DNA of 46,856 bases from the sequence record PZ379178.1; one strand, written 5' to 3'. The notes under the pieces are model-generated. The model did no database searches. It saw nothing but the letters and a program-made list of their open reading frames with translations, and was not told where the DNA came from. Position numbers and translations under genes: made by a program. This document shows, in pieces, positions 3,186 through 37,300 of the stretch. The stretch's first letter is position 1; the number at the start of each line of letters is the position of its first letter. The DNA comes from a phage.

Positions 3186-3214
3186 GAAACGAAACACACA
3201 AAGAGAGAAAGAAA

Positions 3215-3409
3215 ATGGCTACTATCTATACTGGTAAATTCTACGAATCACGCAAGACTGGCTACATCTACGAGATGCAAGTAACTGAAGATGGTTATGT
3301 TTTGGTTGACATTGAAGACTGCACATATGCATTCGAAGTTAGCCCAACTTACAAATATGATCTGGAAACTGTTAAAAACGAATTCGGCGAAAAATTTGAT
3401 GAGGTATAA
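3215..3409 (+). CDS. Hypothetical small protein
   Basis: 64-aa ORF 81 nt downstream of promoter box 3134; AGAGAGAAAG purine run before ATG. Confidence 0.5.
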   Translation: MATIYTGKFYESRKTGYIYEMQVTEDGYVLVDIEDCTYAFEVSPTYKYDLETVKNEFGEKFDEV

Positions 3410-3414
3410 GAGTA

Positions 3415-3636
3415 ATGGCAATTTTAACATTTGACAAACAATGGGAACTATTTCAGGCAATGGTGGTTCAGGAATTACACAAGGCTGGATATAAAGGTGA
3501 TGTTTGGGATTTGGCCTGGTGCCTTGATTACAGTTTTGAGGAAGATTACTTGCGAACCGATATCGAAACGTGGCGCGACCGCATGGTTGCAGATATCGCA
3601 GATATGAAAAAAGATTGCCCGGAGGATTTTGAATAA
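3415..3636 (+). CDS. Hypothetical small protein
   Basis: 73-aa ORF, tightly packed after 3215..3409. Confidence 0.5.
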   Translation: MAILTFDKQWELFQAMVVQELHKAGYKGDVWDLAWCLDYSFEEDYLRTDIETWRDRMVADIADMKKDCPEDFE

Positions 3637-4335: not shown

Positions 4336-5472
4336 ATGGCAGCAGCAAAGATTACCAACGAGCAATTAATCGAAGAACTGAAAAACGGCCTTACTAACAA
4401 GGCGATTGCAGAGAAGTATGGTATGAACATTCGTAACGTTGAGATTCGTCGCAGTAAGTTGGCTAAGAGTGGCTTGTTCGGGCATGGTAACGAAGGCATT
4501 AAGAAGCTAGTACCGGACGGATACTTGGTAAAAGGCACTTCGACCATGATTGATGCGGATGGGAATGAGAAGCTGCGTTGGGTTAAGACTTCAATTGATA
4601 ATGAGCGCCTTGAGATTCTGCTTGAGCAAGCACGAGAGGCATTTTGTTCTGACTTACCAAAGGCAGTTGCCAGTGAGTGCCCAGACATTGATTTTGATGA
4701 TGACACGATGGCTATGTATCCGGTTTTCGACCTTCACATTGGCGCAATGGCTCATAAGCATGAGTGCGGTGAAAACTACGACACTGCAACAGCAGAGAAG
4801 GTAATGAATAGCTTCTTTGATTATGCTGTAGATAAGGCTCCTAAATCAATAAATGCGACATTAGTTTTGGGGGGTGATTTTCTGCATTACGACTCTCTAG
4901 AGGCTAAAACACCAGCATCAGGACATATCTTAGACAGCGACAGTCGCTATGCTAAATTGGTTTACGTAGCAATCCGCTCAGTGCGTCGTGCGGTTTCAAG
5001 GATGCTTGAGAAGCACCAAATCATTGATATTAAAGTAATAAGTGGAAATCACGACGAAGCTGGGATGGTTTGGTTGCGTGCAGCATTGGCGGCATTCTAT
5101 GAAGACGAGGAGCGAATTACTGTCGACGTAAGCCCAGCAGCAATGCTGATGACAAGCTTCGGCTCAACATTGATTGGTTATACTCATGGTCACCAGATGC
5201 GAAAAGCTGAAACTCGACTTACAGTAATGGCTACAGACTTTCGTAAACTATTCGGTAACAGCGAATATGTCTATACACACTCGGGCCACTGGCATAGTCA
5301 GAAAATTACAGAAACAAACCTGGGTATCGATGAAGTTCATGGTCAGCTTGGCGCGCCAGATGCCTATTCAGCTAATGGAGGATGGCGCTCAATGCGTCAA
5401 GCAGCGGTAATCGTTTACCATAAGCGTTTTGGTGAGGTTGGTCGATTTATTTGTCGCCCTGAGATGTTCTAA
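4336..5472 (+). CDS. Calcineurin-like metallophosphoesterase with N-terminal HTH-like region
   Basis: Motifs DLHIG, GGDFLHYD, GNHDE, GHQM, GHWH in order typical of metallophosphoesterases; N-terminal LTNKAIAEKYGMNIRNVEIRR resembles a helix-turn-helix. Confidence 0.6.
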   Translation: MAAAKITNEQLIEELKNGLTNKAIAEKYGMNIRNVEIRRSKLAKSGLFGHGNEGIKKLVPDGYLVKGTSTMIDADGNEKLRWVKTSIDNERLEILLEQAREAFCSDLPKAVASECPDIDFDDDTMAMYPVFDLHIGAMAHKHECGENYDTATAEKVMNSFFDYAVDKAPKSINATLVLGGDFLHYDSLEAKTPASGHILDSDSRYAKLVYVAIRSVRRAVSRMLEKHQIIDIKVISGNHDEAGMVWLRAALAAFYEDEERITVDVSPAAMLMTSFGSTLIGYTHGHQMRKAETRLTVMATDFRKLFGNSEYVYTHSGHWHSQKITETNLGIDEVHGQLGAPDAYSANGGWRSMRQAAVIVYHKRFGEVGRFICRPEMF

Positions 5473-6862: not shown

Positions 6863-6936
6863 GCTTATAATTTGCCACCGCCTAATGTATGATATTTGCA
6901 CTATGTATTGACAAATTAGGATTTAAAGGTGATCAC

Positions 6937-7152
6937 ATGAGGGAAGTAATTAACGCCGCCACGGCATCAACCGGCGGAGCCGCTGTAACTGGTGCCGCAA
7001 CTGGTCAAATGACTATAGCAATAATCAGCCTTGTGGCTCTTGTTGTTTTCGGGCTGTGGGGAGCATATTGGAAGTTTAAGGACAGTCAGGCAATCAGGAA
7101 GGCTCTAGAGTCGGGTGATTTAAAGACAGCTATCAATATTAGGAGTAAGTAA
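6937..7152 (+). CDS. Holin (putative)
   Basis: 72 aa with one strongly hydrophobic segment IAIISLVALVVFGLWGAYW and charged C-terminus; directly precedes endolysin; AAAGGTGA SD before ATG 6937. Confidence 0.5.
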   Translation: MREVINAATASTGGAAVTGAATGQMTIAIISLVALVVFGLWGAYWKFKDSQAIRKALESGDLKTAINIRSK

Positions 7153-7637
7153 TGAAGCAGAAGCTGGTAATTAGTGCAGCGACGGCTGTGGCAATATACA
7201 TCGCAGCGCCGATTATTGAGCTAGTAGAAGGTGTGGAATACAAGCCTTACATGGACATTGCAGGCATTCCTACGGTTTGTTCAGGTATCACTGGTCCTGA
7301 TGTGGTGTGGGGTAAAAAGTACAGTGCAAGGGAGTGCAGGAACTTACTGGAGAAACACATCCAGATTCATGGAAAGTATGTGCAGGATGCAGTAACTTAC
7401 CCAATCTCTCCACAGACAAGGGCGGCGTTAATCAGCTTTAGCTACAACGTTGGTGGCGCTGCAATGAGGAAGTCAACGGCAGTAAGGCTGATTAATCAGG
7501 GCAAGATTGAAGAGGGTTGTAATGCTCTCGCCTCCTGGAATAAAGCTCGAGTAAATGGCAAGCTAAAAGTTGTTAAAGGCCTCGTTAACAGGCGCAACGA
7601 GGAGATTAAATTATGCTTAAGTGGGGTGGGTAAATGA
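7152..7637 (+). CDS. SAR endolysin (GH24 lysozyme-like)
   Basis: N-terminal hydrophobic SAR-like segment then E-x8-D-x5-T catalytic triad (ELVEGVEYKPYMDIAGIPT). Confidence 0.7.
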   Translation: MKQKLVISAATAVAIYIAAPIIELVEGVEYKPYMDIAGIPTVCSGITGPDVVWGKKYSARECRNLLEKHIQIHGKYVQDAVTYPISPQTRAALISFSYNVGGAAMRKSTAVRLINQGKIEEGCNALASWNKARVNGKLKVVKGLVNRRNEEIKLCLSGVGK

Positions 7638-8020
7638 AGGCTGCGTTAATTGCTGCGGTAATTATACTTTCTGGTTGCTCGGCAACATCTGCGCTGACCG
7701 GGTTGATTGGTAGTAAGCCAGAGATTAGCGCTCAAGCAGGTGCGGAGAATAACAAGGTTGGAGTAGGGCTAACTAATAAGGTTGATTCAAGTTCCAGCGC
7801 AAAGGCTGAAGTGAAGAACTCTAAGGTTGACACTCTTGATAGTTCAAGCGGTAAAAAGACTTCTGATAACTCAATCAAGGCATCAACAATCACGGCTGAG
7901 AAGATTGAAATCACCAACAATGATTCGTCTGCAATCCCGTGGATTGGGAGTGGAATCATGTTTTGCGTCATCATCATTCTGCTCTTAATGATATTCAGGA
8001 AAAACAAAAAAGCCCCGTAA
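7634..8020 (+). CDS. Unimolecular spanin (lipoprotein with C-terminal TMD)
   Basis: Lipobox LSGC after signal peptide, Ser/Thr-rich middle, C-terminal TMD IMFCVIIILLLMIF; position after endolysin as in T1-type lysis cassettes. Confidence 0.6.
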   Translation: MKAALIAAVIILSGCSATSALTGLIGSKPEISAQAGAENNKVGVGLTNKVDSSSSAKAEVKNSKVDTLDSSSGKKTSDNSIKASTITAEKIEITNNDSSAIPWIGSGIMFCVIIILLLMIFRKNKKAP

Positions 8021-8036: not shown

Positions 8037-8367
8037 CAAACAATTCGTCATCACTCATGTTGGCTATGTTCATCATCTCACTGACGTAATCACTGGACCT
8101 ACCTTCAAGGCTCATGAATTCAAACTGAAATGGTCGCTTAATTGAACCCTTACACCAGTACACTCCATTAACTCCATCAAGATACCCAGCCGTAAGCATT
8201 CTCGCCATAAACTCCTTCGAGCAACTTGAGGCAAAATACCTTTCATCAACCCCGGCAGCCTTGGCCATCCTTGCGCAATCCTTGTGCTTATAGATGAATC
8301 TTGCCAGGTGCTGGCGGTTGAAGTTCTTGTATCCTTCGCAGAAATTATACAGGTCGAGCAGGTACAT
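8032..8367 (-). CDS. Hypothetical protein
   Basis: 111-aa ORF, last gene of minus-strand block, converges on bidirectional terminator at 8000-8036. Confidence 0.45.
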   Translation of the reverse strand: MYLLDLYNFCEGYKNFNRQHLARFIYKHKDCARMAKAAGVDERYFASSCSKEFMARMLTAGYLDGVNGVYWCKGSIKRPFQFEFMSLEGRSSDYVSEMMNIANMSDDELFA

Positions 8368-8370
8368 AAA

Positions 8371-9954
8371 TTACCCCAGCAATCGTGGATTAATGTAAAT
8401 TTTATCACCAATCAGGCATGTGTAGTTTTTCTCATCAAGCATAGGAATCAAGTGGTCCTTAATGCGAGTCATAATTCCAGCCTGAGCTTCAAAAGGTTTA
8501 ACCTTGCGTGCAGCCTCATACAACGAGCGAACACCAACAACACCTTTACCATTCTTGCCTTGCTTAATCAGGATATCAACCAGCTTGTTCATCTCGGCAT
8601 TGTCACCAGCATGACCAGCAGCACTAGCGGATGATAAATAAGTCTTGCTTAGTTCGTTGAAAATCATAACCGCTTCCTGCATTGTATCCAGTTCAATCTC
8701 TCTTGACTTTTGAGGGCTGGATCCGGCTGGTGAGAACCAGTTACGAATTACGTGCAGAACAGAAGCGATGCGGATTGCTTGCTTATCAAACTTACCAAGA
8801 GCACCGCGCAACATTGTGTGAGAATACTTGCCACCATCACCAAGATGAGGCTCCATCTCTTGACGAGCGCGGTTAAGGTAACGCATTGATGACGCGCTTA
8901 CAGTAAGTTTCGCTTCAACTTCATTCATAATCTCATGAACAAGACGGAAATAGTCTGCTTTCAGGCCGCCATCAATAGCCTCATAGGTTGAATCACCATT
9001 CTCATCAACAAATACGCGCTCACCAAGAAATGACTTCTCACGCACCAGAAGGAAGCGCTCAGATACACCGATACCACGCGCACCGGCATTCATAATGGCG
9101 TTAATTGTTTCATCCTGCGCAATTACAGAGATACAACCCATAGCCACGAAACTCATGTTGTTTTCTGCATTCGCGCGCGCAATAGATACATTACCCGCAT
9201 CCCACGCCTTAAGCACAAGTTCGCTGTTCGTTTTCTTCGAGCCATCACCGTAAGTCATGCCTAACAGTGAGTTGACGCTAGTAGCCTCATCAGAGATTAC
9301 CGCAAAATTACCCTGGCGATTGTTGATTCGCGCAAGACCTTCCGGTGTAGTATCGGAGACAGGGAATACTATATCGCATAGCTTCTCGAGCTTCTCCTCT
9401 AAATCCTCCTTCTCCTCAAAAAGTGAAGCCATTTCAGAAGGTGATTTCTCCTGCTTCATCTCTTTAGCCAGAGCGGACAGTTTAGCCATAATCTTTTTTC
9501 GATCACGTTTACGTACTTCATTCAACCGCTCAGTCTCAGCAATCATCGGCGCAATTGATAGCGAGTTAATGGCTGATTTACCAGTTGAAGGCGGCTGACT
9601 TGTTACCACGTACAAAGATGTTGGCTGTTGGGTTCCATGATACTCGACAGTAAAACGCCCAAGCATTGCAGCAGAAACACAACCAAGAAAGTGCATGTAA
9701 GCTGACGACTCAGGGAACTGAACCGAGCGAGCGATATTAGCCGATAGCTTACCAACAACATCAATATCATTACCGAGTGAGATTACTGGATACTTATCAT
9801 TACCTGTATCAATCTCGACAGGTGCTTTCCAGAACGATTGAGACTGTCGATAGCCATTGGCATTAATAGCCACGCGAAGCGGTGGTAGGTTGTCATTGGC
9901 AGCGATTGCCATAACCTGCTCAACAGATAGTTTATCTTCGTTGAAATCAAACAT
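8371..9954 (-). CDS. P-loop NTPase-like protein of unknown function
   Basis: 527 aa; Walker A-like PPSTGKS and Walker B-like FAVISDEA; promoter box cassette immediately upstream (10011-10026, minus orientation). Confidence 0.5.
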   Translation of the reverse strand: MFDFNEDKLSVEQVMAIAANDNLPPLRVAINANGYRQSQSFWKAPVEIDTGNDKYPVISLGNDIDVVGKLSANIARSVQFPESSAYMHFLGCVSAAMLGRFTVEYHGTQQPTSLYVVTSQPPSTGKSAINSLSIAPMIAETERLNEVRKRDRKKIMAKLSALAKEMKQEKSPSEMASLFEEKEDLEEKLEKLCDIVFPVSDTTPEGLARINNRQGNFAVISDEATSVNSLLGMTYGDGSKKTNSELVLKAWDAGNVSIARANAENNMSFVAMGCISVIAQDETINAIMNAGARGIGVSERFLLVREKSFLGERVFVDENGDSTYEAIDGGLKADYFRLVHEIMNEVEAKLTVSASSMRYLNRARQEMEPHLGDGGKYSHTMLRGALGKFDKQAIRIASVLHVIRNWFSPAGSSPQKSREIELDTMQEAVMIFNELSKTYLSSASAAGHAGDNAEMNKLVDILIKQGKNGKGVVGVRSLYEAARKVKPFEAQAGIMTRIKDHLIPMLDEKNYTCLIGDKIYINPRLLG

Positions 9955-15689: not shown

Positions 15690-15886
15690 TGAATAAAATT
15701 ATTAAGAAAGGCGATGCTATCAAGTGCACAAAGGCGGCATCGGATGACTTCATGGATGGATGCGATTACCAGGTCGAAAAGGTATCGAAGACTGGCCACG
15801 TATTCTGCTACAGCGATAATGGCGAATTGGTGAGCATTGACTACCCGTATGACCAGAATTATGGGAAATTCGAAAGAGTAAGTTGA
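15686..15886 (+). CDS. Hypothetical small protein
   Basis: 66-aa ORF with ATGA overlap. Confidence 0.45.
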   Translation: MMNKIIKKGDAIKCTKAASDDFMDGCDYQVEKVSKTGHVFCYSDNGELVSIDYPYDQNYGKFERVS

Positions 15887-16074
15887 CACATCTAACCCTG
15901 ACTGGTACATTAACAACTGTAGACAGACGAGGCCACCAAGTGGCAACGGCGCACGGAGCGCAACACAAAGTCCATAGCTCACTAAGCAGCGTATATGGCG
16001 AAATCGGTCGAGAAACTCGACGCTGGAAGCGTAACCAGCAATCCTTCAATAGCGCAATCGCTACTCAAGGATTT

Positions 16075-16150
16075 GTTCTGCTGGCGTAACAGGATAACGC
16101 AAAGACCTCCTAAGTCTTAGTTACTGGTTCGAGTCCAGTGCGGAACACCA
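16075..16150 (+). tRNA. tRNA-Arg (anticodon CCU)
   Basis: Hand-folded cloverleaf: 7-bp acceptor stem (one G-U), U8, 4-bp D stem, 5-bp anticodon stem with loop CTCCTAA (U33, CCT, A37), T arm ACTGG-TTCGAGT-CCAGT, discriminator A and encoded CCA. Confidence 0.8.
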
Positions 16151-16181: not shown

Positions 16182-16394
16182 ATGAAAAAAGTAACAATCA
16201 TCGTAAAAGATATTGAAAGCGGCACTTCCCAAAAATTCAACGCAACACTTGACCGTGAACATAAATGCTTAAAGGGTGTGATTGGCGGGGTTTCAGTTAG
16301 CGCGGATATTAAAGGTTATCTCGAGCTTGAAAGAGAAACTCAAAACTATAGCAATCAGAGCGGGAAGATAAAAAATGCAGCTTTGGGATGTTAA
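16182..16394 (+). CDS. Hypothetical small protein
   Basis: 70-aa ORF downstream of tRNA. Confidence 0.45.
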   Translation: MKKVTIIVKDIESGTSQKFNATLDREHKCLKGVIGGVSVSADIKGYLELERETQNYSNQSGKIKNAALGC

Positions 16395-16563
16395 GCTTTC
16401 AATCCGATTAATGGGTCGTAGTTGCAAAAGTTGCACTCAAGAATTTATCGCGTCGGTTACTGCTAAGTCCTCAGAGGAAGCAGTAGCGAAAGTTAAGGTA
16501 ATGTCTGGTGCCGACCCGGATTACCACAAATTCCTAGTAGCTTACGTTCGTGAGCGAAAGTAA
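16375..16563 (+). CDS. Hypothetical small protein
   Basis: 62-aa ORF with CKSC motif; followed by terminator 16617-16640. Confidence 0.4.
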   Translation: MQLWDVKLSIRLMGRSCKSCTQEFIASVTAKSSEEAVAKVKVMSGADPDYHKFLVAYVRERK

Positions 16564-16616: not shown

Positions 16617-16640
16617 GCCCTCTTCTTGAGGGCTTTTTTT
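16617..16640 (+). terminator. Rho-independent terminator (end of early block)
   Basis: GCCCTC-TTCTT-GAGGGC followed by T7. Confidence 0.65.
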
Positions 16641-16651
16641 CGTTTGCTATA

Positions 16652-16687: not shown

Positions 16688-17212
16688 ATGAAAGACGAAA
16701 ACTTCACCAGTCAGGCGCAAGAAAAGGTCCGCTCTGGCAACTTTAAAGCCATGTACAATAAAAAGTACTCAGACATTACAACGCTAGCCAAAAACCGAAG
16801 CATGACACCCGAACAGCTATTTGAATTCGCCGTGAAATACTTCTCATGGGCTGAGGACCAGGCAATCAAGGCAATCGAGACAGCCAGCTTCCAGGGTGTG
16901 GTAAAAGAGAGCCTGGTGCACAAACCACGAGTCTTCACGCTAACCGGATTCTGCCTTTACTGCGGTGTCACCCATAGCGCCATCGAGAAATGGAGGAAGT
17001 CGGCTGGTTATGATGAGGTGATTGCGTTCATTGATTCCGTGATTCGCGAGCAGAAATACCAGCTTGCAGCATCTGGCATTGTTAACCCTGGCATGATTTC
17101 CAAGGAGCTTGGAATCGACAAACCGCAGGAGATCACTATAAGCAATAACTCTTCTGCTAACGACGTCGAAACGATGAAGGAAGCTCTGGAGTCTGTGATT
17201 AGTAAGCTGTAA
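16688..17212 (+). CDS. Terminase small subunit (putative)
   Basis: 174 aa directly upstream of terminase large subunit, first gene of late block after terminator; AAAGGAGG SD. Confidence 0.5.
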   Translation: MKDENFTSQAQEKVRSGNFKAMYNKKYSDITTLAKNRSMTPEQLFEFAVKYFSWAEDQAIKAIETASFQGVVKESLVHKPRVFTLTGFCLYCGVTHSAIEKWRKSAGYDEVIAFIDSVIREQKYQLAASGIVNPGMISKELGIDKPQEITISNNSSANDVETMKEALESVISKL

Positions 17213-23193: not shown

Positions 23194-24135
23194 ATGGCCA
23201 TTAAATTTGATGCAGAACAAGCAAAAATCACCGCTCACCTTGAGCAAATGGGTGTAGATAAAGCTGATGCTGCTGGTATCTGGACCGTCAAGCAGTTGAC
23301 CGCCAACCTGGCGCGTGCGTACGAAGCAGAATATCCGGAAAACTCCGTAGTTAATATCTTCCCAGTAACTAACGAAATCCCGGCCCATGCAAAGTATTTT
23401 GAGTACCCTGAGTTTGACGGAACGGCAATCGCACAGATTATCGCTGATTACTCTGATGACCTTCCGCTGGTTGATGCGTTCATGACCGAGAAGCAAGGCA
23501 AAGTTTTCCGTTTTGGTAACGCGTTCCTGATTTCCACCGACGAAATCAAAGCTGGCGCAGCAACTAGTCAGTCACTGTCAGCTCGTAAACAGGCTTTGGC
23601 TTTTGAAGCTCATGACAACCTGCTCGATAAACTGGTATGGTCTGGCTCTGCACCGCACGGCATTCCTGGCGTATTCAATGCGCCGAACGTTAACCAGGTT
23701 GTTGCTGGTACTTGGAACTCCGCGGCTGCTGCTATGACTGATATCACAGCGCTTATCGATGCTATCGAAACAGCTACCAATGGTGCTCACACCGCGACTG
23801 ATATCCTGCTGCCTGCTTCCGCTCGCCGCCTGATGCAAGAACTGGTGCCGAACACCTCTATCAGCTACGCGCAGTTGTTTGCAACCAATAACTCCGGCAT
23901 CACTCTGCGTTATCTGCAATTCCTGGATAACTACGACGGTGCTGGTGGCAAAGCTGCACTGGCATTTGAAAAAAATCCGCTCAACCTGAGTATTGAGATT
24001 CCGGAAGTGACGAACGTGCTACCTGGCCAGCCGAAGGATTTGCATTTCAAGTACCCGGTAACCTCTAAAGCGACGGGCTTGATCATCTATAGGCCGCTAA
24101 CTGTATCAGTACTGAAGGGCATTACCTACGCCTAA
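23194..24135 (+). CDS. Major capsid protein (putative)
   Basis: 313 aa, strong AGGAATAAACAAG SD, own sigma70-like promoter and flanking terminators, position in head module. Confidence 0.65.
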   Translation: MAIKFDAEQAKITAHLEQMGVDKADAAGIWTVKQLTANLARAYEAEYPENSVVNIFPVTNEIPAHAKYFEYPEFDGTAIAQIIADYSDDLPLVDAFMTEKQGKVFRFGNAFLISTDEIKAGAATSQSLSARKQALAFEAHDNLLDKLVWSGSAPHGIPGVFNAPNVNQVVAGTWNSAAAAMTDITALIDAIETATNGAHTATDILLPASARRLMQELVPNTSISYAQLFATNNSGITLRYLQFLDNYDGAGGKAALAFEKNPLNLSIEIPEVTNVLPGQPKDLHFKYPVTSKATGLIIYRPLTVSVLKGITYA

Positions 24136-28348: not shown

Positions 28349-31330
28349 ATGGCAACTAACGAAATTGCTGGTATCACGCTAGCCGTCGACGTAGCTCAGG
28401 TCGATAAGGGTACGCAATCCTTACAGAAATTCAGGCAAGCAAACGAGCAAGCTGCAACAGGCATTAATAGCTTCGTCAACGCCGAACTTGTAGCCAAGAC
28501 TCAAGCAAGGGACACTGCAAGGCAGCTTGAGGAGCAGCGCAAATCTTTCGCATCACTTCAGCAAGCCATAGACCCAACCGCTGCTAAATTCCTGAAGTTG
28601 CAGAAAGCAGCAACAGATTTGGACAAAGCATTTGAATCCGGGATAGTTCCTGATGATGAATTCTTCAGGCTTGGCTCTGTTATTGAAACTCAAATCAATA
28701 AGCTAAACAGGTCTAAAGCCGCTCTTAGCGAAGAAGGCAGGGCTGCACTACAGGCATCAATAGATAAAGAGAAAGCAACAACAGCAGCACAAAAGTTCAT
28801 TCAATCTCTTGAGAACGAGGCGAATGCAGCAAGCCTGACAAGGACTGAACTTCTTCAGCTTAAGGCTGCTCAGCTAGGAGTTAGTGACCAGGCTGCACCG
28901 ATTATCGACAGGATTGGAAAGGCTGCCGAGGCATCTGCGGTACAATTGCAGAAGCAAAGCTCCGCTTTTGTTAAGTCTGGGCTTAGTGCCGGTCAATACA
29001 AGCAAGCAATTCGACAGCTTCCAGCGCAGATTACAGATATCGGAACCTCTCTAGCTGGTGGTATCCCAATCTGGCTAATTGCAATTCAGCAGGGTGGGCA
29101 GATTAAGGATAGCTTTGGTGGTATTGCTAACACCGCAAGGTTCGCACTGGCAGCCATTAACCCATTAACGGCAGTTGTTGGGACTTTGGGCTTGGCCCTC
29201 GGCGCTCTTGGTGTTGCTGCTTATCAGGCTGACAAGAACACTCGCGGACTAGCATCAACGATAACATTGGTTGGCAACTCAACTATCACGTCGACAGCGC
29301 AGATAAATCAGGTTGTTGATGGAATTGAGAGTTCAACACTAGCCACGCGCGGACTTATCCAGGAGATAGCTAACAGCCTGGTAGCAAACGGTAATCTGAC
29401 TCTTACGCAGATAGATAAGATAACCAAGGCGACAGCACAATGGGCAACTGTAACATCAACAGACTCGAAAACTATTCTTGGATACTTTGATCAGATTACA
29501 AAGGACCCAATTCAAGGTCTGATTGCACTCGATAAGCAGTTCAACTTCCTTCAGTCTGGGCAATTGAAATACATTGAGAATATCAGGAAGACGGCTGGAG
29601 AAACAGAGGCTGTAACCGCAGCTACTGAGCTATTCGCTAACGTTATGGAAAACAGGCTAGCAGACGTAGCACTAAGCCTTAACCCTCTTGAGAGCGCATG
29701 GAATAGCTTCAGGAAGTTTGTAAGTGAGATTTGGGATGATATAAGCAAAAGGACGCTTGGGGCGCTTAACTTAATAACTGACGTTGTTGCTGGGACTATT
29801 GAGCAGATAAGGTCGTTAATAAACTCCGGTGATATCCTATTGGGCGAGTTTGCAATAGCAGCAACCAAGACACTTCAGTCAATACCTGGACTTGGCGATT
29901 TAGGCAATGAAGCAATCGCTGAGCAGCAAAAGATTGTTGATGCAGCTAAGAAGCAAAATGAGGAGTTAGCAAAAAGCATAGCTGAGCGAGATGCGAGAAT
30001 CAGGAAGGGTGAGCTTGGTTATGTCGAGAACAACAATAACACCAACCTTAGCGGAAATAATGCATCAACCGATAAGGAGTTTGCAGCAAGGAAGAAGGCT
30101 CTTGCCGATGAGTATGATGCGATAAAGAAAGCAGGGAGTGAGAGGAAAAAGGCTGTAAAAGAAGAAAGGGATTTAACTTTATCTTATGAATCTGGCGTTC
30201 TTGCACTTCAGGCTCAGTTAAAGGTCTTACAAGAGCACAGAACGATAAATGATGTAATAAGCAATGAAAGAAAGCAGTTATTCCAGGAAGAAGCGAAGTT
30301 TGCAATACTTGAACAAAGACAAGCGGATGGTACGCTTACAAAATCACAGGCTAAGCTACTTGCGCAGAAGAATATCATTCTTGAACAGGCTAAACAGAAG
30401 GCTGAACTTGGTGACCAGATTGTGCTTCAGGAGAGGTCAAACAAGTTACTTGATGACAACCTTAAGAAGACAATACAGATTACCAATGAGGCGAAGAATG
30501 TTTCACTTGCTGCGGGTCTATCAGAAAGGGAGCGGCAAAGGGCAGGAGAACTTCAGGCGCTAGAGTCCAATCAGGTAAACAAGGGTGGCTCTGTAGATGA
30601 TGTTGATTTCCAAAATCTGCTGGAAGCAAGAAAAGAATACTACAGGCAGGAAGATAACCTAAGGTCAGACTGGCAAGCTGGTGTAACTTCAACGCTTGCT
30701 GACTTAACTGAGAAGTACACTGACTTCAACCAAATTGCTAAGGATTTGACTGTCGCAGCTTTTGATGGAATTACCGACCAGATTACAAACCTTGTAACCA
30801 CTGGAGAGACTAATTTCAGGGAGTTCACGGCAAACATACTGAAAATGATTGCGAAAATTGCAACTCAGCTACTTTTGGTAAAGGCTATTGAATCTACAAT
30901 TAAGAGCTTTGGTGGTGACACTGGAGCAGGTAGTGCCTTTGAGTCAATAAAGTCAGCAATTGGCTTTGCTGGCGGCGGTTATACTGGTGATGGTGGGAAG
31001 TATCAACCTGCCGGAACTGTGCACCGCGGTGAGTTTGTATTCACAAAAGAAGCAACAAGCAGAATTGGCGTTAAGAATCTGTATAAGCTAATGCGAGGTT
31101 ATGCAAATGGCGGTGCTGTTGGTGGGCCTTCTGGATATGCTAATGGTGGAGTTGTTGGCGGTACTAATGTCAGTGTTGGTGGTGTGACGGTTAACGTAAG
31201 CTCTGGATTTAGTAGCGGTAATGATGCTAAGGCGATAGAATCTGGAGTCAAGGTTATCGTTGCTGAGGAAATCAGCAAGTCATTCCAGCAGGGCGGAAGA
31301 GCCTTTGCTTATCTGAGGGGTTACAACTAA
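28349..31330 (+). CDS. Tail tape measure protein
   Basis: 993 aa, largely alpha-helical/coiled-coil composition, Gly-rich C-terminus, follows G/GT chaperone pair. Confidence 0.85.
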   Translation: MATNEIAGITLAVDVAQVDKGTQSLQKFRQANEQAATGINSFVNAELVAKTQARDTARQLEEQRKSFASLQQAIDPTAAKFLKLQKAATDLDKAFESGIVPDDEFFRLGSVIETQINKLNRSKAALSEEGRAALQASIDKEKATTAAQKFIQSLENEANAASLTRTELLQLKAAQLGVSDQAAPIIDRIGKAAEASAVQLQKQSSAFVKSGLSAGQYKQAIRQLPAQITDIGTSLAGGIPIWLIAIQQGGQIKDSFGGIANTARFALAAINPLTAVVGTLGLALGALGVAAYQADKNTRGLASTITLVGNSTITSTAQINQVVDGIESSTLATRGLIQEIANSLVANGNLTLTQIDKITKATAQWATVTSTDSKTILGYFDQITKDPIQGLIALDKQFNFLQSGQLKYIENIRKTAGETEAVTAATELFANVMENRLADVALSLNPLESAWNSFRKFVSEIWDDISKRTLGALNLITDVVAGTIEQIRSLINSGDILLGEFAIAATKTLQSIPGLGDLGNEAIAEQQKIVDAAKKQNEELAKSIAERDARIRKGELGYVENNNNTNLSGNNASTDKEFAARKKALADEYDAIKKAGSERKKAVKEERDLTLSYESGVLALQAQLKVLQEHRTINDVISNERKQLFQEEAKFAILEQRQADGTLTKSQAKLLAQKNIILEQAKQKAELGDQIVLQERSNKLLDDNLKKTIQITNEAKNVSLAAGLSERERQRAGELQALESNQVNKGGSVDDVDFQNLLEARKEYYRQEDNLRSDWQAGVTSTLADLTEKYTDFNQIAKDLTVAAFDGITDQITNLVTTGETNFREFTANILKMIAKIATQLLLVKAIESTIKSFGGDTGAGSAFESIKSAIGFAGGGYTGDGGKYQPAGTVHRGEFVFTKEATSRIGVKNLYKLMRGYANGGAVGGPSGYANGGVVGGTNVSVGGVTVNVSSGFSSGNDAKAIESGVKVIVAEEISKSFQQGGRAFAYLRGYN

Positions 31331-33874: not shown

Positions 33875-36800
33875 ATGGCACAAATGGTCAAAACAAATGC
33901 GGAGCTATGTGATATGGCGGAAGAAATTAAGATTTATGGAAGTAAGGGCGGACAGCCAAAGCAGCACCAACCTGTAGAGCAGCCTGATAACCTGATATCC
34001 GTAAACAAGGTTAAGGTTTTGCTAGCTGTTTCTGATGGTGAGGTTGATAGCTCATTCTCCCTAAAGGACCTTTACCTTGCTGACGTTCCTGTACAGAACC
34101 AGAATGGCACATACAACTACGAGGGTGTAACGGCAGAGTTTCGCCCTGGCACACAGAGTCAGGATTACATTGCCGGGCTAGAGGGTGCTAACTCGGAAGT
34201 GCAAGTGAACAGGGAGATTAAAAACTCAACTCCTTACATCATTGCTGTTAATAACACCCAGCTATCAGCGATTAGGGTTAAGCTGTTTTGGCCTCGTCTG
34301 ATTAATCAGGAAAGTAACGGAGATCTTAACGGTACCACTTGCGAGTATGCGATTGACCTGTCCGTTGATGGCGCTACATACACTGAGTACACGCGCGGAG
34401 TAGCTAATGGCAAGACAACTAGCGGGTACGACAGAAGTATCAGGGTTAACCTTCCTGCTGAGTTCTCGAGTGCGTTGGTGAGGGTTCGTAAGATCACGGC
34501 AGATTCAGAAAGTTCGACGCTGGTTAACGACATGCAAATTACGACCTATCAGGAAGTAATTGATGCTAAATTCCGCTACCCACTTACAGCGCTGGTTTAC
34601 GTTGAGTTCAGTTCTGACCTCTTCCCTAACGGAATCCCGACGATTTCAATCAAGAAGAAGTGGAAGTTGATTCGCGTTCCGACTAACTACAACCCAGAGA
34701 CAAGGACTTACAGCGGAACCTGGAACGGCACCTTTAAGATGGCGTATTCCAATAACCCGGCGTGGGTTCTTTACGACTTGGTGACGAATCAGCGTTACGG
34801 ACTTGACCAGCGAGAGCTTGGCATTACTATTGATAAGTGGGGTCTGTATGAGGCGGCGCAATTCTGTGACCAGATGGTTCCAGATGGTAAGGGTGGAGTT
34901 GAGCCGCGCTACCTGTGTGATGTTGTCATTCAGCAGAAAGTTGAAGCATATCAGGTAATCCGTGATATTTGCTCTATCTTCCGTGGGCTGACATTCTATG
35001 ACGGCGAGCAGATAGGGATTGTTGTCGATAAGCCGCGTCAACCATCGTACGTATTCACCAATGACAACGTTGTTGATGGATTGTTCAACCGTACATTTGG
35101 TAGCGATAAGTCACTTTACACGGTTGCCAACGTTCAGTTTGATGACGTTGAAAACTCATACCAACAGGATGTTGAGCCAGTATTCGAGTTAGAGGCAACA
35201 AGGCGTTTTGGTTACAACCCGGTCGACCTTACAGCTATTGGATGTACTCGCAGGAGTGAGGCAAACCGCCGCGGGCGCTGGTTATTAAAGACGAACATTC
35301 GCAGCGAGACTATTAGTTTCACTACTGGTCTGGAAGGTATGATTCCAATGATTGGTGAGGTTATTGCAGTTAATGACCAGGCATGGTCTAGCAACTACAC
35401 CCTTAACCTTTCTGGTCGTATCGAGTCAGTAAGTGGGTTGCAAGTTTTTGTGCCATTTAAGATTGATGCTACTGCTGGCGACAGGATTCTAATAAACAAG
35501 CCTGATGGAATGCCAGAGTACAGGACCATTGCATCTGTATCTGAAGATGGTATGACGCTGCAACTTAATACAGCGTTTAGCTTTACTCCTCAGCCTGACA
35601 CAGTATTTGCGATTGATAAGGAAAATCTTGCTCTTCAGCAATATGTTGTGACCGGTATTCAAAAAGCAGACAGCGATGGAGATGATGCGTTTGGTTACAC
35701 GATTACCGCAGTTGAGTACGACCCGAACAAATACGACGAGATTGATTACGGCGTAAACATTCAGGACAGGCCAACTTCAATCGTGGAGCCAGATACATTA
35801 CTGGCACCCGAGAATGTTCAGGTTAGCAGTTACAGTAAGGTTGTTCAGGGTTTATCAGTTGAGACAATGGTAATCACGTGGGACAAGGTTCAGTACGCGA
35901 AAACCTACACGGTCCAGTGGCGCAAGGAGAACGGAAACTGGATTAACGTGCCGCGCACAGCAAGCACAGAGGTTGATATTGAAGGTATCTATGCCGGAAT
36001 TTACCAGGTTCGCGTAAGGGCCGTTTCTGATACTGAAAACGTATCCGCATGGTCTGACATTGTTTCAGTAAGCCTCACAGGCAAGATTGGGACCCCTTCT
36101 TCACCTACAGTAATCACCGCTTCAGATGATGAAATATTCGGCATTAGGGTTAAGTGGGGATTTCCTGAAAACTCAGCCGATACGTCATACACTGAATTGC
36201 AGCAAGTAGCCGACAATGGTGATGGTACTTATACACCAGAGAATGCTAGCCTTCTGACTCTGGTGCCTTACCCGAGTTACGAGTACTGGCATACTACACT
36301 TCCTGCTGGAAAGGTCATCTGGTACAGGGCGCGACTGATTGACAAGATTGGTAACGTCTCACCATGGACTGATTTTGTAAGGGGTATGGCAAGCGATGAT
36401 GTGTCGTCAATCATTGGTGATATTAAGGTTGATATAGAAAACTCAGATGGGTTCAAGTATCTCCAACAGAATGCCATTGAGTCAAACGGAGCTATTCAGG
36501 CGCAAGCGGAATCAATAATTGAGAACGCCCTGGCTAATGATGGTGACGTGCGTAGAATGACGAAGGAAAACGGCAAGAGGAAGGCCGAATTTGTTCAGGC
36601 TGTGAATCTTATCGCCGATGAAGAAAGGGCTCGCGTAGAGGCTCTGACGCAGCTTAAGGCGCAGATTGATGATGAGATTGTAGCTTCATTGACAAGGATT
36701 GATACGGCGCTAGCGGAAGAGACGCAAGCAAGGACCACTGCGGACACTGCTTTATCTGCAAGGCTAGGTGATAATGAGGCTGCGTTAAATGAGAAGTTGG

Positions 36801-37300
36801 ACACTTACGTTACTGCCGATTCAATTGGTGCTCAGTACGGGATTAAACTTGGCCTCAAATACAATGGCGTTGAGTACAGTTCTGGCATGAGTATGGAGCT
36901 AACTGGTTCTGATGGCAATGTTCGTAGTCAGGTCATCTTTGATGCTAACAGGTTAGCAATCAGTAACGGCATTAGCTCTGGATCCGGTCAGTGGTCATTG
37001 CCTTTCGTAGTTGAAGGTAATCAGGTATTCATTCAAAGCGCAGTGATTCAGGATGGTTCAATCACTAACGCGAAGATTGGTAACCGGATTCAATCTAATA
37101 ACTACGTGGCTGGTTCTCAGGGTTGGGCCATTGATAAGTCAGGCAGTGCGGAACTTAACAATGCAACTGTAAGGGGTAGTCTGTACGCAAGTAACGGCAA
37201 CTTTGCGTTTAACGGAACCAACAACACTGTTCAGATTAACAATAATGGAATTACAGTTAATTTACCGAATGGTGGAAGGGTTGTAGTTGGAGTGTGGTAA
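33875..37300 (+). CDS. Host specificity / central tail fiber protein (gpJ-like)
   Basis: 1141 aa, last and largest gene of tail-tip cluster after I-like gene. Confidence 0.75.
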   Translation: MAQMVKTNAELCDMAEEIKIYGSKGGQPKQHQPVEQPDNLISVNKVKVLLAVSDGEVDSSFSLKDLYLADVPVQNQNGTYNYEGVTAEFRPGTQSQDYIAGLEGANSEVQVNREIKNSTPYIIAVNNTQLSAIRVKLFWPRLINQESNGDLNGTTCEYAIDLSVDGATYTEYTRGVANGKTTSGYDRSIRVNLPAEFSSALVRVRKITADSESSTLVNDMQITTYQEVIDAKFRYPLTALVYVEFSSDLFPNGIPTISIKKKWKLIRVPTNYNPETRTYSGTWNGTFKMAYSNNPAWVLYDLVTNQRYGLDQRELGITIDKWGLYEAAQFCDQMVPDGKGGVEPRYLCDVVIQQKVEAYQVIRDICSIFRGLTFYDGEQIGIVVDKPRQPSYVFTNDNVVDGLFNRTFGSDKSLYTVANVQFDDVENSYQQDVEPVFELEATRRFGYNPVDLTAIGCTRRSEANRRGRWLLKTNIRSETISFTTGLEGMIPMIGEVIAVNDQAWSSNYTLNLSGRIESVSGLQVFVPFKIDATAGDRILINKPDGMPEYRTIASVSEDGMTLQLNTAFSFTPQPDTVFAIDKENLALQQYVVTGIQKADSDGDDAFGYTITAVEYDPNKYDEIDYGVNIQDRPTSIVEPDTLLAPENVQVSSYSKVVQGLSVETMVITWDKVQYAKTYTVQWRKENGNWINVPRTASTEVDIEGIYAGIYQVRVRAVSDTENVSAWSDIVSVSLTGKIGTPSSPTVITASDDEIFGIRVKWGFPENSADTSYTELQQVADNGDGTYTPENASLLTLVPYPSYEYWHTTLPAGKVIWYRARLIDKIGNVSPWTDFVRGMASDDVSSIIGDIKVDIENSDGFKYLQQNAIESNGAIQAQAESIIENALANDGDVRRMTKENGKRKAEFVQAVNLIADEERARVEALTQLKAQIDDEIVASLTRIDTALAEETQARTTADTALSARLGDNEAALNEKLDTYVTADSIGAQYGIKLGLKYNGVEYSSGMSMELTGSDGNVRSQVIFDANRLAISNGISSGSGQWSLPFVVEGNQVFIQSAVIQDGSITNAKIGNRIQSNNYVAGSQGWAIDKSGSAELNNATVRGSLYASNGNFAFNGTNNTVQINNNGITVNLPNGGRVVVGVW

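Follow-up and report, generated by a model that had tools for sequence, protein, structure and literature searches.

The window, a 46,856-bp stretch of phage DNA (PZ379178.1), is that of a T1-like E. coli phage of the Drexlerviridae, Braunvirinae-type, and carries a real tRNA-Arg gene that decodes AGG. We consider it probable, at roughly 80%, that its product is a functional elongator tRNA-Arg(CCU) supplementing the scarce AGG decoding of the host. The gene follows directly on a conserved structured leader RNA and precedes small ORFs and the terminase genes (Table 1).

A single tRNA gene with intact sequence features is found in the window. The initial annotation had proposed a tRNA-Arg(CCU) at this site from the letters alone, to be checked with tRNA scanners. 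ARAGORN, run over all 46,856 bp, returned one tRNA only, a tRNA-Arg with anticodon cct on the + strand at identical coordinates, and the Rfam tRNA model RF00005 matched nucleotides 16075-16147 over model positions 1-71 of 71 with 58.9 bits (gathering score 29, E 2.6e-10 window-wide), so that the fold is accepted by both scanners. Apart from the tRNA, the Rfam scan of the window gave no match at or above the gathering score. The features named at the outset (CCT anticodon, U33, A37, TTCGAGT T-loop, encoded CCA) can all be read in the sequence: the anticodon loop at 16107-16113 is C32 U33 C34 C35 U36 A37 A38 (CUCCUAA), the T-loop lies at 16128-16134, the discriminator A at 16147 and the CCA at 16148-16150. 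The conserved tRNA nucleotides U8, A14, G18G19, U33, a purine at 37 (A37) and the GTTCGA of the T-loop are present and invariant in the homologue alignments. Identity elements recognized by E. coli ArgRS are A20, C35, U/G36 and A/G73; at the sequence level the window tRNA possesses A20 (D-loop AACAGGAUA), the CCU anticodon and the discriminator A at 16147. The cloverleaf, with stems of 7/4/5/5 bp, is the minimum free energy (MFE) structure of the 76 nt at -21.8 kcal/mol, with a z-score of -1.6 against shuffled sequences that is unremarkable alone. Compensatory evolution represents a stronger argument against a chance fold than folding energy does: across 10 homologues the cloverleaf has 96.7% of its cells paired, and both sides have changed in 9 of its 21 pairs, values reached by 0 of 500 shuffles, while slid control alignments pair only 26-47%.

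Table 1. Features at and around the tRNA gene, in window positions.
Feature	Position	Strand	Basis
Putative sigma-70-like promoter (TTGACA, 17 nt, TACATT, TG upstream of -10)	15883-15911	+	Consensus scan 10/12; predicted start near 15918
Conserved structured non-coding leader RNA, 157 nt, six hairpins	15918-16074	+	Directly upstream of tRNA; covariation in homologues
tRNA-Arg(CCU), 76 nt, CCA encoded	16075-16150 (anticodon 16109-16111)	+	ARAGORN, Rfam, cloverleaf MFE, compensatory changes in homologues
Small ORF, 70 aa, phrog_16862, first after tRNA	16182-16394	+	PHROG E 1.8e-8; CDS in AN_ECEAS
Small ORF, 62 aa, phrog_2919	16375-16563	+	PHROG E 5e-28; homologue annotated DUF3667 in TR3
Intrinsic-terminator-like hairpin (GCCCTC..GAGGGC then T7), ends leader-tRNA-ORF unit before terS	16617-16643	+	Terminator scan
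terS	16688-17212		Pfam GP3_package and phrog_606

The tRNA gene and its interpretation are already known in T1-like coliphages. Among sequence records, Escherichia phages ES and AN_ECEAS (Braunvirinae) come closest, with ca. 94% identity across 57% of the initial 25 kb; their tRNA is 100% identical to that of the window yet unannotated. A 106-nt query spanning the tRNA matched 139 phage records, many with a tRNA-Arg annotated, among them Rogue1, AKS96, AHP24/42, AHS24, Sf12, Sd1, phiEB49, TR1-3 and the BASEL 'Piccard' phages. Identity to the annotated genes (AKS96, Rogue1, Sf12, TR1-3 and others) is 92-97%, with 96% for the Rogue1 copy, which has been published as an "arginyl-tRNA recognizing the rare codon AGG" (PMC3496638). 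The AHP24 paper reports one arginyl-tRNA in each of its genomes (PMC4070988), and the tRNA-Arg of SU57 was proposed to aid the reading of AGA (PMC7718038). The family is described as virulent (PMC7718038, PMC11447400), and the T1, Rtp and Rogue1 records contain no integrase annotation, so that a prophage attachment-site relic is an improbable reading of the tRNA.

Absence of the tRNA from many family members and its missing annotation in the two nearest records would also fit a functionless relic of an old horizontal acquisition, decaying or neutral, but this is scarcely credible: the tRNA is 92-100% conserved across many isolates while its flanks diverge, all four helices are kept paired by compensatory substitutions, no disabling features are found and the Rfam score stands at double the gathering threshold. 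That the tRNA was recently captured from the host was considered separately and is ruled out. By direct alignment the tRNA is only 63% identical to argW and 61% identical to argU, and a near-identical copy of the 76 nt is absent from 5,426 complete E. coli genomes in a search that detects only roughly 85% identity or higher. Despite this low overall identity to argW, the host tRNA-Arg(CCU), the anticodon, anticodon loop, C31-G39 closing pair, A73 and encoded CCA of the two tRNAs all match.

Within the phage family, the closest counterparts are found in Rogunavirus, whose tRNA-Arg(CCU) (Rogue1 3387-3462, JK06, AHP24/AHS24/AHP42/AKS96, Sf12, Sd1) has the same anticodon, orientation and site upstream of small ORF(s) and terS. 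In contrast to these phages, the window has a backbone and 5' leader of Braunvirinae (Rtp-like) type, a group in which most members have a UCU tRNA. The clade of the window (ES, AN_ECEAS, TR1-3, Rao1, CY1, IMM-001) thus combines a Braunvirinae-type leader with a Rogunavirus-type tRNA. The tRNA-Arg(UCU) of Rtp, IME253, CEB_EC3a, SU57 and the BASEL 'Piccard' phages shares the slot between leader and first ORF. This tRNA resembles that of the window in its T-arm and 3' acceptor strand (88% identity) and in its proposed role, the reading of a rare AGR codon. Its UCU anticodon, however, reads AGA and, partly, AGG, its carriers are AGA-rich rather than AGG-rich, and in its D-arm and anticodon arm it matches E. 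coli argU at 87-95% identity instead of resembling the CCU type. Overall, the slot upstream of terS holds three tRNA bodies, the CCT type, the Rtp-type TCT and the MM01/ACG-M12-type TCT, all of them AGR decoders, and the layout of leader, tRNA, small ORF(s), terminator and terS is common to the window, TR3, Rogue1, MM01, ACG-M12, RobRod40 and the Piccard phages. A more distant parallel is phage T4, where a tRNA-Arg(UCU) is one of eight tRNAs co-transcribed with the stable RNAs C and D. T4 is likewise a virulent coliphage that supplies a rare AGR decoder and co-transcribes its tRNAs with structured small RNAs; it differs in having eight tRNAs and a UCU instead of a CCU anticodon, and the likeness drawn here is one of description.

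AGG is the commonest arginine codon of the window. A simple greedy procedure called 73 ORFs with 13,854 codons, in which arginine is encoded by AGG (181), CGC (144), CGT (134), AGA (96), CGA (80) and CGG (18). AGG makes up 28% of arginine codons and reaches 13.1 per 1000 codons, compared to 0.58 per 1000 (8 occurrences, 1.1% of arginine codons) in a host sample of 40 annotated E. coli K-12 CDS (13,826 codons); the genome-wide E. coli rate is about 1.2-1.6 per 1000. The AGG enrichment on which the initial annotation had made its supplementation proposal depend is therefore present. It is also not what coding-strand base composition predicts (AGA 24%, AGG 21%), the observed order being reversed (AGG 28%, AGA 15%). 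The count of AGG in late versus early genes that had been suggested tends to favor the proposal. Per 1000 codons, AGG occurs 16.6 times in packaging and virion genes, 17.8 times in the tail fibre and 26.6 times in the lysis cassette, where it accounts for 10 of 12 arginine codons, against 9.5 in replication, recombination and other genes, 6.9 in the tRNA-bearing small-ORF cluster and 4.3 in the minus-strand helicase cluster. Late classes (16.6-26.6) are thus 2-4 times richer in AGG than the presumed early clusters (4.3-6.9), temporal classes being assigned by homology and the major capsid gene having only one AGG. Of the AGG codons, 25 lie in the tape-measure gene alone and 22 in the tail-tip gene. 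In the major capsid gene, which is presumably highly expressed, the single AGG stands against 6 CGT/CGC codons, and AGG may stay suboptimal even with the tRNA. Placement of the tRNA in the early region, as originally annotated, is suggested by its position in the small-ORF cluster upstream of the terminase genes and by the sigma-70-like promoter.

Across the family, the anticodon at this slot tracks codon use. A TerL-anchored scan of IMG/VR yielded 33 loci, all of which were scanned for tRNAs, and the whole genomes of T1, Rtp and Rogue1 were added; codon use was compared for 34 loci over 11.6 kb from terL onwards. Two loci (L012, L034) were also counted as CCT carriers; they begin too near terL for the scan to reach their tRNA, which lies at the other end of the linearised records. 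Carriers of the CCT tRNA-Arg (window, Rogue1, L008, L010, L011, L035) use AGG at 8.9-16.4 per 1000 (mean 13.3) and AGA at a mean of 5.6. Carriers of the TCT tRNA-Arg (Rtp, IME253, CEB_EC3a) use AGG at 3.6-7.6 and show the highest AGA values, 8.7-9.0, while loci with no tRNA (T1 and about 22 others) use AGG at 1.9-8.4 (mean 4.0) and AGA at a mean of 5.3. The difference in AGG use between CCT and tRNA-less loci has a Mann-Whitney p of 4e-5, a value that ignores phylogeny and represents approximately three independent contrasts. Whole genomes give 13.1 AGG and 6.9 AGA per 1000 for the window and 11.9 and 7.4 for Rogue1 (both CCT), 8.7 and 11.5 for Rtp (TCT), and 5.3 and 7.3 for T1 (no tRNA).

Two contrasts carry information even though ancestry is shared. 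The TCT carriers L006 and L007 have TerL proteins 89% identical to that of the window, and AGG use in the window is 3-4 times higher than in these close relatives. L035 belongs to a distant lineage, with a TerL of only 56% identity, and represents an independent pairing of a CCT tRNA with 15.9 AGG per 1000. The same pattern is visible codon by codon. At conserved arginine positions of orthologous structural proteins, an AGG of the window corresponds to AGA in TCT phages 9, 7 and 5 times, with the reverse seen 0, 1 and 0 times; against CCT carriers, AGG of the window mostly faces AGG and never AGA. The AGG richness of the window and the link of anticodon and codon use across 34 loci support the codon-supplementation reading put forward in the initial annotation.

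Under codon supplementation, host RNA polymerase would start at the sigma-70-type promoter and make one transcript of leader, tRNA and ORFs. RNase P of the host would release the 5' end of the tRNA, host enzymes would trim the 3' end as far as the encoded CCA, and host ArgRS would charge the tRNA with arginine. E. coli draws its very small pool of AGG decoders from one gene only, argW; with this pool enlarged by the phage tRNA, ribosomes could translate the AGG-rich late proteins (tape measure, tail tip, tail fibre, lysis proteins) without stalling. Transcription, processing, charging and a fitness benefit are inferred from the gene and its codon context, and our literature search found no report of expression, processing or aminoacylation for this or related phage tRNAs. 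Even without the tRNA, T1 and many relatives reach 3-5 AGG per 1000, severalfold above the host rate, which indicates that the tRNA is helpful at most and not essential. The direction of cause could also be the opposite, with high AGG use reflecting drift permitted by the tRNA rather than a demand that selects for it.

An anti-defence role would explain the gene differently, with the phage tRNA replacing, or serving as a decoy for, a host tRNA-Arg cleaved or depleted by an anticodon nuclease of the host or a competitor, for example colicin D. Such a role, which we regard as quite unlikely here, predicts neither the link of the anticodon to phage AGG/AGA usage nor the late-gene bias. Anti-defence functions have been proposed for phage tRNAs in general (PMC10264068), and the mechanism is established for other tRNAs, namely tRNA-Lys against PARIS in T5 and tRNA-Tyr against retron effectors (PMC11464382, PMC11555353). 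With a body only 63% identical to argW, the phage copy could be missed by a nuclease that reads the tRNA body; P2 OLD is reported to cleave several tRNAs, Arg included, and annotations in relatives name a polynucleotide kinase (T1, Rtp) and a Stp-like peptide (Rtp). The loop CUCCUAA and the C31-G39 pair are, however, identical to argW, and the loop-mutation signature of nuclease evasion (PMC10264068) is consequently absent. In the literature searched, no defence system specific for tRNA-Arg(CCU) was found. Colicin D attacks all arginine isoacceptors, and against such a pan-Arg nuclease a single CCU tRNA could rescue AGG only.

The tRNA is embedded in a conserved putative transcription unit. 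All relatives examined have a promoter-like site that aligns with that of the window, and homology with TR1-3, Rao1 and CY1 starts at ca. 15919, just past the -10 element. Throughout the family, a phrog_2919 ORF is retained on the downstream side of the leader, and the post-leader ORF of L013 appears homologous to it by eye (unaligned). At the place equivalent to the terminator-like hairpin of the window, T1 has an annotated terminator (8322-8344) before terS. Two further ORFs overlapping the leader and tRNA, a 68-aa TTG ORF (15883-16089) and a 41-aa ORF (15995-16120), were rejected as genes on account of stops in all frames in 13 of 14 homologous leaders, variation of leader length by whole hairpin modules and compensatory hairpin substitutions.

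The existence of a conserved structured leader RNA upstream of the tRNA is well supported. The leader folds with an MFE of -48.4 kcal/mol (z -2.79) and is matched in 92 phage records, in which it is almost never annotated. Fourteen diverse copies share the promoter position, a 5' box GUAGAC..GAGG, hairpins H1-H3 and H4-H5 and, in some, H6. Extra hairpin modules between H1-H3 and H4-H5 vary in number, resulting in lengths from 157 nt in the window to 361 nt in JulesPiccard. In RNAalifold alignments with pair counts, 98.5% of cells are paired in the 5' domain and 99.2% in the 3' domain, with 5 pairs changed on both sides in each. None of 500 shuffles reaches the observed percentage paired or covariation score and slid controls are far lower, while the number of pairs changed on both sides is reached by 6 and 44 of 500 shuffles, respectively. 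H1 is always paired, with at least 6 different stem sequences, and the loop motif A..CGUAA of the final hairpin is retained from one subfamily to another, with 4 of 5 stem pairs covarying. G-U pairs occur only in the + sense, which places the structure on the + strand. On the opposite strand these pairs would become A-C mismatches, which, like the location of the leader close to the promoter, disfavors a DNA-level element such as a pac site or origin; in T1, taken as an analogy, the pac site lies ca. 8 kb upstream of terS. Rfam searches at E<=10 of the window region and five longer leader homologues gave only the tRNA and noise-level matches, and thus no known RNA family for the leader. Searches of the literature on T1-like transcriptomics or antitermination returned nothing on the leader.

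The leader is also present in phages that lack the tRNA. A covariance model of its 5' domain (R1) matches ca. 1.25 kb upstream of terL in 13 T1-like loci, at an equivalent position and including tRNA-less phages. In T1 (7586-7754), the promoter is followed by the 5' box and the hairpins, the last of which, GCCGC-AGACCCGTAA-GCGGC, runs directly into the gp57 Shine-Dalgarno sequence and start codon with no tRNA between. Since T1 has the leader without the tRNA, the leader looks like a family-wide 5' element and the tRNA like cargo inserted between leader and first ORF. The tRNA of the window sits exactly between the leader end (..CATTCAA) and the Shine-Dalgarno sequence of the first ORF, which T1 joins directly to its leader, and this arrangement raises the question of whether it is kept chiefly as an RNase P and 3'-processing site that severs leader from mRNA, with decoding incidental. 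Three unrelated tRNA bodies in the same slot and extra tRNAs tolerated there in L011 and L035 are compatible with such a processing function. Any tRNA would serve this purpose, however, whereas every occupied slot contains an AGR-reading tRNA-Arg whose identity elements are intact and whose anticodon matches codon bias, and T1-like phages manage without a tRNA at the slot. We consider processing as the main reason for retention to be very improbable and retain codon supplementation as the preferred reading. The leader is conserved even where excision of the tRNA by RNase P would part it from the mRNA, suggesting that it need not remain joined to the downstream message.

A leader of this kind could act co-transcriptionally or in trans, for example as a put-like processive antiterminator, although we regard this as unlikely. 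Antiterminators of the put type are cis-acting nascent RNAs that bind the beta' zinc-binding domain of RNA polymerase. By analogy, the leader would let host polymerase starting at the putative promoter read on through the 16617 terminator and the successive intrinsic terminators of the terminase and virion operon. The put RNA of HK022 makes host polymerase terminator-resistant as a nascent phage RNA without staying tethered (PMC9378689), and activity independent of tethering is compatible with excision of a tRNA just downstream of the leader. Both are promoter-proximal multi-hairpin nascent RNAs upstream of a long operon with intrinsic terminators, in phages with neither their own RNA polymerase nor a known antiterminator protein. 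HK022 put differs in having ca. 70 nt and two long stems against 157-400 nt and 5-10 short hairpins, and the two are likened by description only. Covariance model and motif searches for a second leader copy, as in HK022 putL and putR, gave one copy per genome.

Downstream of the leader, the late region of the window contains eight strong intergenic intrinsic terminators on the + strand (16617, 19346, 23063, 24142, 27296, 28310, 31716 and 33838). Re-annotation of TLS described many terminators and very few recognisable promoters in the family (PMC11447400). These terminators, the covarying hairpins and the site of the leader next to the promoter lend a put-like role circumstantial support.

For annotation, our analysis fills a gap, the gene being missing from the ES and AN_ECEAS records and its UCU counterpart from the Rtp RefSeq record. 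For the biology of the family, one locus in one phage family with one host occurs in three tRNA states, CCU, UCU and no tRNA, which go with high AGG, high AGA and neither, respectively. This represents a natural experiment for codon compensation, a role of phage tRNAs that is debated against anti-defence. The leader is the only potentially new item and, if functional, would be a new phage RNA element that could bear on the regulation of late transcription in T1-like phages. Antitermination by the leader, if true, would address how late genes are expressed in these phages, which have no polymerase of their own or known antiterminator.

A conserved, covarying and unannotated multi-hairpin leader RNA lies directly upstream of the tRNA-Arg(CCU) gene. 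In the window this leader is flanked by a sigma-70-like promoter on one side and by the tRNA on the other. It is present in one copy per genome, matches no Rfam family and spans Drexlerviridae subfamilies, including phage T1, which carries the leader without a tRNA. Two mechanically called ORFs overlap the leader and the 5' portion of the tRNA, and both were rejected as genes: they are unconserved, as 13 of 14 homologous leaders contain stops in all frames.

Coordinates of the leader RNA, tRNAs, overlapping ORFs, terminator-like hairpins and genes compared for use of AGG
Feature	Location	Strand	Remark
Multi-hairpin leader RNA	window 15918-16074	+
Leader RNA, T1 copy	L003 7586-7754
Leader RNA, Rtp copy	L004 4649-4892
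Leader RNA, Rogue1 copy	L005 about 3190-3386
Mechanical ORF	window 15883-16089	+	68 aa, TTG start
Mechanical ORF	window 15995-16120	+	41 aa
UCU tRNA-Arg	L004/L009 (Rtp) 4893-4969		absent from Rtp RefSeq annotation
UCU tRNA-Arg	L006 8767-8844
UCU tRNA-Arg	L007 4662-4739
UCU tRNA-Arg	L047 571-645
tRNA of ES/AN_ECEAS records	OR466728.1 47661-47766; PP944860.1 43301-43406		unannotated, 100% identity
Intrinsic-terminator-like hairpins	window 16617, 19346, 23063, 24142, 27296, 28310, 31716, 33838	+
Major capsid gene	window 23194-24135		1 AGG
Tape-measure gene	window 28349-31330		25 AGG
Tail-tip gene	window 33875-37300		22 AGG
Lysis cassette	window 6889-8020		AGG = 10/12 Arg codons

Usage of AGG, the codon read by the window tRNA, is highly non-uniform between genes. 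The coding strand of the terminase and virion gene block also carries eight strong hairpins resembling intrinsic terminators, and strong promoter-like sites are scarce between them.

The nearest relatives of the window, ES and AN_ECEAS, contain an identical tRNA. The leader-tRNA module of T1-like coliphages was also observed at 75-90% identity in MG065688.1 and PP134917.1, two entries entitled 'Campylobacter phage A110b' and 'Pseudomonas phage PsgS01F', whose host labels may result from contamination with T1-like phages.

In most Braunvirinae the slot held by the CCU tRNA in the window is occupied by a UCU tRNA-Arg. The Rtp-type UCU tRNA shares 95% identity with Escherichia coli argU across the D and anticodon arms while its T-arm and acceptor 3' strand are like those of the phage CCU type, a combination that suggests a mosaic origin. 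A third tRNA body, also UCU but unrelated to the other two, is found in phages MM01, ACG-M12 and IME542. The slot is also expandable: Shigella phage Sd1 carries an additional tRNA-Trp immediately upstream of its tRNA-Arg (L011 8633-8706), and six tRNAs (Arg-CCT, Ser-TGA, Ser-GCT, Asn, Trp and Met) are encoded in a distant uncultivated relative (L035 8322-8969).

The promoter preceding the window leader (15883-15917) reads TTGACA..CCCTGACTGGTACATTAACAAC, whereas Braunvirinae relatives share a different one, CTTGCAT..TAATAT. It closely resembles the promoter of a locus from a distant subfamily (L013, about 8665-8710). This pattern of likeness suggests that the window promoter was swapped in by mosaic exchange, with a putative breakpoint at the transcription start.
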